This document shows, piece by piece, positions 33,001 to 36,000 of a DNA stretch of 64,000 bases. Every line of letters starts with the position of its first letter. Within the stretch, counting starts at the first letter, position 1. Made by a program: the position numbers. Source of the DNA: Escherichia coli (GTDB taxonomy: Bacteria; Pseudomonadota; Gammaproteobacteria; Enterobacterales; Enterobacteriaceae); assembly GCF_030013595.1 (NCBI RefSeq), contig NZ_CP122769.1; one strand, written 5' to 3'.

Positions 33001-36000
33001 TATCATGATCCTGAATCAGGTCGAGTATATTCACTTCGATCCCTGCCCCGTTTTCATCTTTTGCCGTGCACTGAATACTTACCCGGGTCACCGAATCCGT
33101 CAGGACTGGCAGTGGGTTAGTTTTGTCTACGTTGATAACAGCCTTCTTCATTGCCCTGTTTCCCCTTGTCCTGAAAAAGTTACCGACCCGTCCGGATGGA
33201 GGGGTCGGTCAGAAAATCATGACTGTCCCTTGTTCATCTTATCAGCATGCTTACGCAGGTACTCTTTCAGGTCAGCATGAGCGTTGATGATATCGTTCAT
33301 TTCATCATTGGTCAGAACAAGCGTGTAAGTATCAGTACTGACAGATTCACCTTCTTTAAGCTTGGCTTCTTCAGCAATACGTTCAAAAATCGGGATCGCG
33401 GTGTCTGCAATGACGGTCACAGTCTTTTTGTTCAGAACGCTGGACATGGAAGGTGCTTTACCTGCCGGGTTCTGTTTAGGAGCGCTGTCCTTTGGAGCTG
33501 GAGCCGGTTCCTGTACCGGTGGCGTATCCAGCGTCTCCGTATTGCTTTCATCGTTCAGTTGATCCGGTACCGGGGTGTTATCGGTAGTATCATCTGCCGG
33601 TTGCTCAGCACCGATGTTTTCCGGAGTCTGCGGATCTGCCATGCGCTCTTCTACCTTGGCAGCTTTGACGAATTTCAGCGTGTTTTTCGTCGCCTTGCCA
33701 TAGATGGAGATCGCTTTGTTGATGTTATCTACCGCATCCTCACCGCTGTACATATACTCGTCCAGTGCAACGTACATGCTCACCTGATCGCTCACAAGCA
33801 TGGTCTGTAGTTCAGAAGGCAGGTCCAGTACGCGAACCATCTGGCGAAGATGCTGCTCTGATTTACCACGTTTTTTTGCCAGTTCCGCAAAGGTCTTAGG
33901 CTCTTCTTTATCTTCAACCAGACGCTTAATTGAAAGCGCTTCAGCTACGACAGACAGCGCCAGGTTGGAGTTGCCGGTCAGGGTGAAGAGTTCTGCTTTT
34001 GAAGCGCTACCGCGAAACTCTTCGCAGCGAATACGAGTAATGCGTTCACGCCCTTCTGCTTCCAGCTGGCGGTTTGCAATAGCGATGGAACGGATACGGC
34101 AAGCCCCCTGACGCAGTACAGGTACGCCATTAACCATCTGAACAACGATAGGCGTCACGCTGAACGGGTCTTCCATGTAGGCATCGGCCAGGCTGTTCAG
34201 GTGTTCCACAACGTGAGGCATTGAATAGTAGAGCTCGCCCATACCGGCCGTGCGGGTGTTAAAGCCTTCCTGCTCTACAACAACCGAAGGGTCAATGATA
34301 AGGCCGTTGCCTTTACGGGCACCGTTACCAGTGCGTTCCAGGTAACCACGAAGGCTGATTTCGTTGCTGTTGTTTTTTACTTCAGTTTCGATTGCGGACA
34401 TTTTTGTTCTCTTTTTTGGTTGGTTGTTTAACTGCGCTACAACACAACAATACCAGGTTCGACATTTTTCCTAATAGGTTGCGGAGAAGAAAAAGTAACT
34501 TTTTTTAAAAATTTTCCTGAGGCAATACTACTCGATCCGTCCGTTTTAAATCTTCACAACAGTGGGCCGTTTTTACGTTTAAGCAAAATAACTGGTTCAG
34601 AAGGTGACTCAGAGAGAAAAGTTACTTTTCCGGTTGTCTGGGCCAGTGATGGGAGAGTGGCAGGACAGGAATGGCTAAACCGGTGCGGGTCTCTTGTAAG
34701 TCGCAGGGGATTCAGGAGATATAGAGGTAAACTGGTACGTTCAGTTTTTGGATTGAGCCGGGCTTTTGGCCCGGGCTTAAGGAAGCAGAAATTTGAACGA
34801 ACTGGCAGGTAATGCTTTATGCCGCCGACAGCTGGCCGTCAGTGCTTTGCTGTTCTGGTTTGACAGTTGGGGGATAACCGGCAGTTAGCCGCTGGCATTC
34901 CGCATCACAGAAAGCCCTGAGGTTGCTGAAGACGGACTCCATGAAATCAGCATGAGCATACGAGTCTACAGGACGTGTCTTGTTATCTTTCATCTTGTTC
35001 TCCTCAATCATTATTAAAACCAGCGGATTTAGTTTCTGGCGCTCCATCTGCTGACCGGCTTTCCCAGAGAGCAGCGATGTGTCGGGTTCTTTTTCTCATT
35101 TTATCGTTTTCATCGGGCCCATCCGGGCGTATAAGAGACCGATTTGGCATGTTTAGGAAACGTACTGGCGTAATTAAAAGCTGAGGTTGGATTTGGAATA
35201 AAAGGATGCTTTTCCCGTTTGTCGGGTCTTTCGCCACCGCTGCACGATGATTCTGTCAGGCATTCTGCGCCCTCCCAGGCTGCACATCTGGAAACAAGCG
35301 TTGGGATGTTCCCTTCCCCTGCTCACCGTAGAAAGATCGGCAAGTCCCGACGGTCGTTCCGTACGAGCCGGGTCCAAATAATGAATAAATAAAACGCCGC
35401 TTCAATTGTATTGACAATAGAAGTCAGGAGGATCATAGTGTCATTCATGGTGCGGCTTTCGCACCACCGCCCCGGCGGTACCGGGCAGAACTGGAGTACC
35501 TCATGAAACTTTCCCGTCAGACGACTTCTGATACTTCTGTTGATGGCCGTTCACGCGCATATGCCTGGGGCCGTGTCCATTATTTCATTATCGAACATGC
35601 ACCAATGGCTGAGCTGGTCGCTATTGACGAGCTGCTGGAAAAAGCTGGCTGGAGCAATGACGGCTGTCCGAACTATGAGAAAGATGACGAGTTTGGTAAT
35701 GCTGGTTACAGCTGTGGTTACTGGATCGATATTGACAGCGTGGGAAGCTTCAAGGCTGACTACAAACGTCTTAAGGGGGAGATTAGTGCGCATATCGCCT
35801 CAAAGGCGGCAGAGGTGGAGATCCGCGTACTGGACTCGATGTCCGACAAAGAATGTAAAGATGTTGCCTCGGTGGCATCTACTGTTCGCCGTGACTTACG
35901 TACGCAGTCCGAATCGCTTCATTCACTGCGTACAATCGTAACGGTTGATCATTACAATCCCTATGTGACCACCAGCCGCCCGCTGAGCATTTCCGCCTGG

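Follow-up and report, generated by a model that had tools for sequence, protein, structure and literature searches.

The L1 locus and its setting on an IncHI2 plasmid

We analysed a stretch of 64,000 nucleotides of Escherichia coli plasmid DNA (contig NZ_CP122769.1; 'the window' below), with a focus on the gene of a ParB-like protein, here named L1, and on a short palindrome, AAAGTWACTTT, that recurs through the stretch. The L1 gene is an open reading frame (ORF) of the minus strand at 33217–34401 that encodes 394 amino acids (RefSeq WP_001272970.1, annotated as 'hypothetical protein' or 'DNA-binding protein'). Two copies of the palindrome lie within the 415-bp spacer between L1 and a small upstream ORF on the same strand: a proximal copy, AAAGTAACTTT, at 34492–34502 (91 bp upstream of the L1 ATG) and a distal copy, AAAGTTACTTT, at 34618–34628 (217 bp upstream). 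A sequence-only reading of the window had placed the two copies at exactly these positions, and had proposed that L1 is an orphan ParB-like protein that controls its own gene and serves as the global regulator that binds the dispersed palindromes. The palindrome is written below either with its W centre, as above, or as the core with any central base, AAAGTNACTTT, or in its 13-bp form, (A)AAAGT-N-ACTTT(T); the canonical duplex is AAAAGTWACTTTT, to be distinguished from a centre variant, AAAAGTACCTTTT. Two paralogues of L1 on the same plasmid are named L2 and L3.

The window is part of the backbone of an IncHI2 plasmid. Over the region 32800–35500 it shares 100% identity with many IncHI2 plasmids from Salmonella, E. 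coli, Enterobacter and Klebsiella; this region matches 1,043 PLSDB records, 1,009 of which are conjugative. As the reference we used pSTM6-275 (NZ_CP019647.1; 275.8 kb; typed IncHI2A, MOBH, MPF_F), to which the locus tested is 100% identical; window position 1 corresponds to position 176699 of this record, and 'record' coordinates hereafter refer to pSTM6-275. The two sequences are collinear apart from insertions of the IS66 and IS21 families. The window contains umuC and the Tra1 region (trhG/H/F, trhY, trhR, mobI, the relaxase and the coupling protein), while the remaining 37 kb or so consists mostly of small minus-strand genes without known function. The L1 gene lies about 7.5 kb past the end of the relaxase (H) operon, amid small genes of unknown function, and neither its flanking nor its small neighbouring ORFs gave an informative family match.

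No partner ATPase is encoded nearby. A tblastn search of the whole window with IncHI2 ParA, IncC ParA and ParM returned no ParA or ParM homologue (nothing at E < 0.4), the deviant Walker-A motif KGGxGK[ST] is absent from all 64 kb, and the ten flanking gene products, compared with PHROGs, gave no match of known function and none that was ParA-like. The ParA/ParB and ParM genes of this plasmid family are in the Tra2 region, outside the window. A type Ia ParABS system has ParA in the same operon and a clustered centromere; L1 has no such ParA, and only two of the 49 copies of the palindrome on the plasmid adjoin it, the rest being spread over the backbone. That L1 is unlikely to form a classical partition locus, as had been suggested from the lack of an adjacent ParA, is thus upheld by the absence of ParA from the 64 kb and by the dispersal of the sites.

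The assignment of L1 to the ParB family is also confirmed. Pfam HTH_ParB (PF17762) matches residues 149–209 (E = 1.5e-5), PHROG 1033 ('ParB-like partition protein') matches residues 24–255 (E = 1.6e-21), and the DNA-binding domain of Caulobacter ParB is recovered by comparison with PDB sequences (E = 1.6e-4), with a TIGR00180 match that falls below the family cut-off. Taken alone, Pfam and NCBIfam see only a weak helix–turn–helix (HTH) match, and the N-terminal ParB domain emerges from the structure model and PHROGs. We built an AlphaFold2 model from 18 homologues; its predicted local distance difference test score (pLDDT) is mostly at least 87 over residues ~21–240, with dips near 41–60 and 141–150. 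The best PDB matches of the model found with Foldseek are ParB bound to cytidine triphosphate (CTP), KorB with and without KorA, and Noc (E = 6e-8 to 3e-5, over alignments of about 190–245 columns), the top structures including KorB 8qa9 and Noc 7ol9 and 7nfu. According to the model, L1 is a genuine ParB-fold protein, with an N-terminal ParB/CTPase-type domain, a ParB-type HTH (residues 149–209; 33775–33957, minus strand) whose recognition helix reads K-S-E-Q-H-L-R-Q, a disordered acidic and proline-rich linker (residues 256–321; 33439–33636, minus strand; pLDDT < 50, poorly conserved) and a conserved helical C-terminal domain (residues 322–394; 33220–33438, minus strand; model helices 325–346 and 365–390). 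The last is presumed to be a dimerization module, common to L2, L3 and the orphan ParB of IncC plasmids.

A check for CTP-binding motifs, which had been suggested together with the sequence-only reading, gave a mixed answer. In alignments with ParB proteins the equivalent of box I (the C-motif, xNPxQPR in ParB) is G46-F-N-T-R50 (34252–34266, minus strand), in which R50 is invariant and F47, N48 and T49 are nearly invariant within the family. The equivalent of box II (the P-motif, GERRxR in ParB) is G99-A-C-R-I-R104 (34090–34107, minus strand): the glycine and two arginines are retained, and the glutamate and the first arginine are lost. In box III (ENxxR in canonical ParBs), L1 has G143-N144, with the asparagine conserved and a glycine in place of the glutamate. 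In total, then, the motifs keep the box II glycine, two arginines and the box III asparagine, whereas both glutamates and one arginine are replaced.

Few close homologues of L1 were found, all of them on large plasmid contigs of enterobacteria. The relatives found in PLSDB by tblastn share ~65% identity in IncHI1 plasmids, ~35% in Klebsiella IncFIB/IncHI1B plasmids and ~32% in the orphan 'ParB' of IncC plasmids. A profile search delineated a wider subfamily of 437 representative clusters at E <= 1e-3, characterized by the signature GFNTR / RxG[AH]CR. These are orphan ParB-like proteins of MOBH elements, including L2, L3 and the IncC orphan ParB, which share both the signature and the order N-terminal domain (NTD), HTH, linker and helical C-terminal domain (CTD). 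A protein-pattern scan of GTDB genomes for L1 relatives yielded nothing that could be confirmed. It should be noted that the IncC member (NZ_CP146657.1, locus L004 5944–6882; 312 residues, with GHRRRR as box II) lies about 3 kb upstream of the IncC partition operon, which encodes ParA and a protein with a KorB domain.

A sharp palindrome dispersed over the backbone

The window contains 17 copies of AAAGTWACTTT against 0.02 expected, a number reached in none of 100 shuffles. With any central base, AAAGTNACTTT occurs in 21 exact copies and in only one copy with a single mismatch, where chance would give ~3.7 matches in total at this tolerance. This makes the motif unusually sharp in comparison with typical transcription-factor sites, which are far more degenerate. 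The whole of pSTM6-275 carries 49 copies, 42 of them with a W centre. When palindromic words were counted without bias, the AAAGTNACTTT type proved to be the only enriched palindrome of the backbone; the other enriched palindromes of the plasmid were rejected, as all are copies of IS26 or tetO. The information content spans 13 bp, (A)AAAGT-N-ACTTT(T), with no conservation outside these positions, so that there is no fixed spacing to promoter hexamers. No consensus sigma-70 promoter was found upstream of L1.

We may wonder whether so short a sequence is recognized by a host factor, or acts as a structural signal that needs no protein, its association with L1 being a coincidence. The palindrome is AT-rich, and the backbones of IncHI plasmids are known targets of H-NS and Hha (PMC7366339). 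Exact conservation at 11 of 11 positions with almost no one-mismatch copies is, however, unlike the sites of H-NS, IHF or Fis, and the resistance and metal-resistance region at 80–150 kb of the same plasmid holds just one of the 49 copies. Moreover, the palindrome has been conserved in plasmids from Salmonella, Escherichia, Klebsiella, Leclercia and Yersinia, and with its short arms and 1-nt centre it could not form a hairpin. We consider a host factor or a structural signal very improbable, and the palindrome is very likely to be the operator of a factor encoded by the plasmid itself.

The placement of the copies points to a regulatory function. In the window, 14 of the 21 sites are intergenic, against 21% of intergenic DNA (binomial P ~ 1e-5), and ten precede a co-directional gene cluster, at 82–222 bp from its first gene. 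A site is found within 300 bp upstream of 12 of the 71 window genes, and L1 is the only one of these genes to have two.

The alternative is that L1 binds the palindromes for an architectural purpose, as a Noc-like protein or on an accessory centromere, and thereby compacts, positions or pairs a plasmid of 200–300 kb or marks it as 'self'. Noc is itself an orphan ParB paralogue with dispersed palindromes of 14–16 bp, and is among the top structural matches of L1. Seven of the 21 sites fall within genes, the distance to promoter elements is not fixed, and two sites lie between convergent genes, one between umuC and dsbA (485–495) and the other between a HAD and an HNH gene (5043–5053); being outside any promoter, these two are easier to reconcile with a sliding or architectural mode than with a classical operator. 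Clusters of sites also adjoin replication genes. In the Klebsiella plasmid NZ_CP034040.1 five palindromes are grouped in an unannotated 2-kb gap just downstream of repB (locus L011 1162–2419), the IncHI2 sites at record 987 and 1772 occupy the equivalent position, and a further IncHI2 pair, 65 bp apart (record 266113 and 266178), is near repHI2. These clusters suggest a possible link to replication or to copy-number control. Against a purely architectural role stand the intergenic and upstream bias described above, with its ten sites before operon heads, and the fact that the plasmid already has both ParAB and ParMR; nor was an amphipathic membrane helix seen in L1, although no search aimed at one was made. 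We hold such a role to be quite improbable.

Conservation of the upstream sites and the paralogues L2 and L3

In five further lineages the same palindrome ranks first among palindromic words: 11 copies were counted in 41 kb scanned of IncHI1, 20 in 40 kb of the Klebsiella plasmid (IncFIB/IncHI1B), five in 21 kb of a Leclercia-type element, seven in 21 kb of a Yersinia-type element and three in 21 kb of a P0035-type element. The 12.5-kb IncC segment examined contains no copy. Exact sites lie upstream of the L1 orthologue in five of six lineages, the least similar of these proteins being 35% identical, and the remaining lineage has a site with one mismatch. Two sites precede the orthologue of IncHI1 (65% identity; at 105 and 223 bp) and that of the Yersinia type (44%; at 109 and 210 bp), one exact and one degenerate site precede that of the Leclercia type (50%), and as many as six are found within 870 bp upstream of the Klebsiella orthologue (35%); the P0035-type relative has one upstream site with one mismatch. 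When these upstream regions are aligned, the proximal site is positioned ~90–120 bp before the ATG in four lineages, while its flanks have diverged. The proximal site of the window aligns with those of the IncHI1, Yersinia-type and Klebsiella orthologues, and the distal site is conserved in IncHI1.

We also scanned metagenomes for the two-site architecture. The scan yielded 120 loci, mostly single chance pairs or unrelated tandem arrays. The informative ones (L056, L073, L081, L090, L103 and L135) are Klebsiella-type or IncHI-like fragments and add no new lineage. Three others (L017, L087 and L096) were discarded as false positives: they belong to unrelated tandem arrays that repeat every 20 bp or 51 bp and have AAAGTNACTTT in every unit.

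The plasmid encodes two further orphan ParB-like proteins with the architecture of L1, and several observations concerning them, and L1 itself, weigh against naming L1 as the protein that binds the palindrome. L2 (387 residues; record 269897–271060, minus strand, or locus L009 29998–31161) and L3 (351 residues; record 274270–275325, minus strand, or L009 34371–35426) share the ParB fold with L1. In IncHI2, in IncHI1 (pHCM1) and in one IncHI1B plasmid, L2 is preceded at ~60–95 bp by the conserved centre variant AAAAGTACCTTTT, that is AAAAG-TAC-CTTTT compared with the canonical AAAAG-TWA-CTTTT; the whole plasmid has only two copies of the variant. The recognition helix of these L2 proteins, KS[PNS]TTI.., is unlike that of L1. 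In Klebsiella, by contrast, the L2 helix is SEMAVRQ, closer to the SEQHLRQ of L1, and two canonical sites lie 117 and 296 bp upstream of the gene. Sites upstream of the gene are therefore not a feature unique to L1. The recognition helices of the L1 orthologues themselves differ (SEQHLRQ, SVTHVRK and TEAHIRN) among lineages that share one palindrome. The nucleotide pocket of L1 appears diverged, and its CTP hydrolysis, perhaps even its CTP binding, may differ from that of canonical ParBs. The association with promoters is tempered by the fact that a site occurs less than 300 bp upstream of ~17% of the window genes and that orthologous promoters are not independent of one another. Finally, natural non-mobilizable derivatives of IncHI2 and IncHI1B plasmids persist without L1 and the relaxase region, so that these plasmids can be maintained without L1. 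Two such derivatives, pSI96-1 (L015) and pCF10-tmexCD1 (L016), retain L2, L3 and palindromes.

Could L2 or L3, both encoded near repHI2 and outside the window, then be the protein that recognizes the palindrome, with L1 as a regulated target that has another task, such as a HerB-like one on the recipient chromosome after transfer? The shared architecture, the Klebsiella L2 with its canonical sites and L1-like helix and the persistence of derivatives that keep L2 and L3 all agree with this proposal. So does the position of L1 amid small 'establishment-type' genes next to the relaxase operon, with PsiA, an AcrVA2-like protein and a methyltransferase in one lineage; HerB of F, a ParB-like protein of the leading region, binds the chromosome of the host but does not bind the plasmid that encodes it (PMC13370423). 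However, L2 in IncHI2, IncHI1 and IncHI1B has a different helix and only a centre-variant site upstream, and L3 has no canonical site in the ~475 bp upstream that extend to the end of the record. The regions upstream of L1 are the richest in sites in every lineage checked. As for a HerB-like task, L1 lacks the D3 and D4 domains of HerB, and the tblastn search of PLSDB with L1 (E <= 1e-5) did not recruit the numerous F-like plasmids, as judged from organism and record counts. We therefore regard L2 or L3 as an unlikely binder in place of L1. That the factor is one or another of the orphan ParB-like proteins seems probable, and for L1 in particular the case is about evenly balanced.

The pattern of helices and sites in L2 would fit a rule in which each ParB-like protein binds the palindromes upstream of its own gene, although it rests on one evolutionary change. 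When such covariation of recognition helix and palindrome was sought in distant relatives, no enriched palindrome was present at L142 (P0046) or L140 (P0054), and no canonical site was found upstream of the L2-type protein of L139 (P0048).

A candidate regulator of the IncHI backbone

Regulation of IncHI transfer has so far been described through another circuit. TrhR and TrhY of R27 are activators of the F, H, AC and Z transfer operons, and their effect is opposed by HtdA; when htdA is mutated, 139 of 181 expressed genes, among them most of the non-tra genes, are derepressed at 25 °C (PMC7366339). That paper describes no binding site. From gene order and the R27 numbering, trhR and trhY are presumed to be the minus-strand genes at 14138–14938 and 13624–14136, respectively. 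Is the palindrome the response element of TrhR/TrhY or of HtdA, and L1 unrelated to it? The breadth of the htdA effect would agree with a plasmid-wide motif, and sites do precede several of the operons concerned: in the divergent region between trhR and mobI, one site (15015–15025) is 82 bp upstream of trhR and the R operon and another (15410–15420) is 192 bp upstream of mobI/traH and the H operon, and on pSTM6-275 sites precede the AC and Z operons (record 987, 1772 and 20127). A metagenomic IncHI-like contig also encodes homologues of TrhR and TrhY and carries the palindrome.

The F operon, whose promoter is the standard reporter for TrhRY and HtdA (PMC7366339), does not conform to this scheme. 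The 594-bp AT-rich spacer before trhF (13030–13624), which holds the F-operon promoter region, lacks the palindrome even when two mismatches are allowed, and the corresponding IncHI1 interval has no exact site. Moreover, TrhR, TrhY and HtdA have no match in Pfam, NCBIfam or PDB sequences, and no DNA-binding domain was detected in them. Because the F promoter lacks a site and the three proteins lack a family match, the palindrome is probably not the TrhRY/HtdA response element, an identification that we judge to be improbable; a cascade or cooperation is possible. To be set against L1 is that TrhR, TrhY and HtdA, for all their lack of a recognizable fold, are potential DNA binders. At its C terminus TrhY has an invariant CxxC...CPxC motif, and its model, of low confidence (pLDDT 63), has as top match FlhC of the FlhDC complex (8j56), although not significantly so; TrhR/TrhY might be a distant activator of the FlhDC/AcaCD/BisC type. 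Activators of the FlhDC type use long degenerate sites and not perfect 13-bp palindromes, which counts against TrhY as the protein that binds the palindrome.

Taking these comparisons together, we read the 13-bp palindrome, with moderate confidence, as the operator of a regulatory network that would span the whole IncHI-type backbone, with L1 as its most likely binder; few other DNA-binding proteins are named on this backbone by PGAP. The idea of an autoregulated global regulator thus stands in part: the palindromes are indeed plasmid-wide and mostly before operons, but L1 is one candidate among several, albeit the best one. In the best reading, L1 would be a global regulator of the KorB type, possibly of the VirB or BisD type, that also regulates itself; the comparative support for autoregulation and for a KorB-like role is real but indirect. 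If it worked as KorB, VirB and BisD do, L1 would dimerize through its C-terminal helical domain and recognize the palindrome with its ParB-type HTH; the ParB/CTPase-type domains at the N terminus might next form a closed clamp able to leave the site and reach nearby promoters. The two sites upstream of the L1 gene would provide autoregulation, and the fifty or so sites, mostly 80–220 bp upstream of operon heads, would allow coordinated control of transfer, oriT (origin of transfer), replication-proximal and 'establishment' cargo operons.

A KorB-like model is ranked first because the size and perfection of the palindrome are typical of ParB-family operators and the domain layout is that of KorB. 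KorB of the IncP-1 plasmid RK2, which has the layout NTD, DNA-binding domain, linker and CTD and 12 copies of its 13-bp operator OB, TTTAGCGGCTAAA (PMC11790492), is a CTP-dependent sliding clamp and a global repressor. Like L1, it combines a ParB NTD, an HTH, a long flexible linker and a CTD. Both plasmids carry many near-perfect copies of a single 13-bp palindrome with a free central base, mostly near promoters, and both have sites at the gene of the regulator itself. On the other hand, KorB is encoded beside IncC, a ParA protein, and works with IncC and KorA, whereas L1 has no ParA or KorA-like neighbour. L1 has no match to the Pfam KorB domain (HTH_ParB only) and its box II reads GACR instead of GERR, and the ~49 putative operators on its plasmid compare with 12 for KorB.

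L1 might repress or activate: since the sites are upstream of promoters, without fixed spacing, on a thermoregulated backbone silenced by H-NS and Hha, VirB-like anti-silencing or BisD-like activation would suit them no less than KorB-like repression. VirB of the Shigella virulence plasmid is, like L1, an orphan ParB-like protein of a large AT-rich, thermoregulated enterobacterial plasmid silenced by H-NS/Hha, with sites upstream of promoters and not over them. It is a ParB-like CTP switch that counters H-NS and descends from a plasmid ParB of the P1/F type, and its sites are few and of different sequence; L1, with its GFNTR / G[AH]CR signature, belongs to a separate subfamily. BisD of ICEclc, a CTP clamp that activates transfer promoters jointly with the FlhC-like BisC (PMC12409273), resembles the candidate L1 in being a ParB-like protein of a conjugative element that acts on many transfer-related promoters; TrhY could be a possible FlhC-like partner in IncHI, although this is a weak lead. 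BisD differs by an extra activator domain, of which L1 has none, and by loading at two 23-bp bisS sites from which it slides ~50 kb (PMC12409273), as opposed to the ~50 short sites of IncHI.

Among plasmid ParB-like proteins without ParA, the nearest published analogue is HerB (YfjB), a host-reprogramming protein of plasmid F (bioRxiv 2026, PMC13370423), likewise an orphan with a CTP-type NTD and an HTH, encoded among establishment-type genes with no ParA partner. HerB has 652 residues in four domains, with a novel D4 dimerization core, and its family is defined by D1–D4, ~650 residues and at least 80% coverage per domain (PMC13370423). L1 falls outside this definition: its 394 residues comprise D1/D2-like domains, a disordered linker and a helical tail of ~70 residues. 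Furthermore, HerB binds 156 chromosomal regions without a consensus motif and does not bind F itself (PMC13370423), whereas the L1 plasmid is saturated with one exact motif. The orphan ParB paralogue Noc of Bacillus subtilis is associated, as L1 appears to be, with dozens of dispersed palindromes (NBS); it is, however, a chromosomal tether between DNA and membrane and is not promoter-associated, whereas the sites of the L1 plasmid are strongly biased towards regions upstream of operons.

A search of 8 million papers and preprints for the exact string found no paper on the palindrome, and we found none that links IncHI plasmids to a ParB-like regulator. What may be new here is a KorB-type global control that lacks ParA, has a diverged nucleotide pocket and paralogous copies, and uses about four times more sites. 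A wider proposal would make L1 the DNA-binding effector of IncHI control, a nucleotide-switched clamp loaded at ~50 exact 13-bp sites that, as VirB or BisD would, relieves H-NS/Hha silencing or co-activates with TrhR/TrhY; we find it doubtful. Equally tentative is its second part, in which L1, L2 and L3, with their diverged helices and the centre-variant operator of L2, would form a multi-ParB network across IncHI1, IncHI2 and IncHI1B/FIB(Mar). If true, the first part would explain why the htdA mutation derepresses nearly the whole R27 backbone.

IncHI1, IncHI2 and IncFIB/IncHI1B plasmids are clinically dominant and carry the multidrug resistance of typhoid, mcr-1, carbapenemases and metal resistance; their regulation is known only through H-NS/Hha and the mechanistically opaque TrhR/TrhY–HtdA circuit. 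An exact operator that recurs some 50 times on each plasmid and is conserved from group to group would, with a candidate ParB-type protein to bind it, offer a concrete cis/trans handle on this regulation, and possibly a target for blocking transfer or destabilizing the plasmids. It would also add a ParA-less, many-site member to the short list of ParB-family transcription regulators (KorB, VirB, BisD and HerB).

Other sites and neighbouring genes of the window

The remaining sites of the window are distributed as follows. In its first part, a site with a G centre is intergenic (2049–2059), and another (2950–2960) is 26 bp upstream of the minus-strand gene 2537–2929, where it overlaps the stop codon of the gene upstream. 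Within the Tra1 region, sites are found in coding sequence at the trhF/trhH junction (11955–11965), inside trhR (14574–14584, C centre), inside the relaxase gene (18833–18843, C centre) and inside the coupling-protein gene (20271–20281), the 3' end of which has a further copy, 60 bp before the next gene (22001–22011). The site at 26903–26913 is 169 bp upstream of the minus-strand gene 26455–26739. It can also be seen that the sites at 15015–15025 and 15410–15420 bracket the trhR–mobI divergent region, within which oriT presumably lies, and that the same arrangement is found in IncHI1 (locus L010, 35467/35952) and in a metagenomic IncHI-like contig (L073, 2681/2784).

At higher coordinates than L1, a long run of minus-strand cargo genes (40867–63008) has a palindrome at each operon head. 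These sites are 146 bp upstream of the operon head 43397–43600 (43741–43751), 157 bp upstream of 45476–45796 (45948–45958), 138 bp upstream of 48307–48546 (48679–48689), 212 bp upstream of 53195–53521 (53728–53738), 176 bp upstream of 57392–57769 (57940–57950) and 140 bp upstream of the gene of an Ig-like domain protein, 60618–63008 (63143–63153), all these genes being on the minus strand; one more copy, with a C centre, is inside the Ig-like protein gene (62108–62118). The run includes a 794-residue protein of the PAPS-reductase family (48796–51180), an HNH endonuclease, a DNA methyltransferase (54364–55614), DUF3085, DUF957 and DUF6012 proteins, a RelE/ParE toxin and the Ig-like surface protein, a gene content that resembles establishment or anti-defence regions.

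The two insertions that interrupt the collinearity with pSTM6-275 lie on either side of L1. The IS66-family element, at ~27205–29734, has three ORFs (27289–29705), and the IS21-family element, at ~38212–40373, carries istA/istB (38303–40272). Neither has a counterpart at the same place in pSTM6-275, which near the position equivalent to the second insertion has IS421 and IS150 instead.

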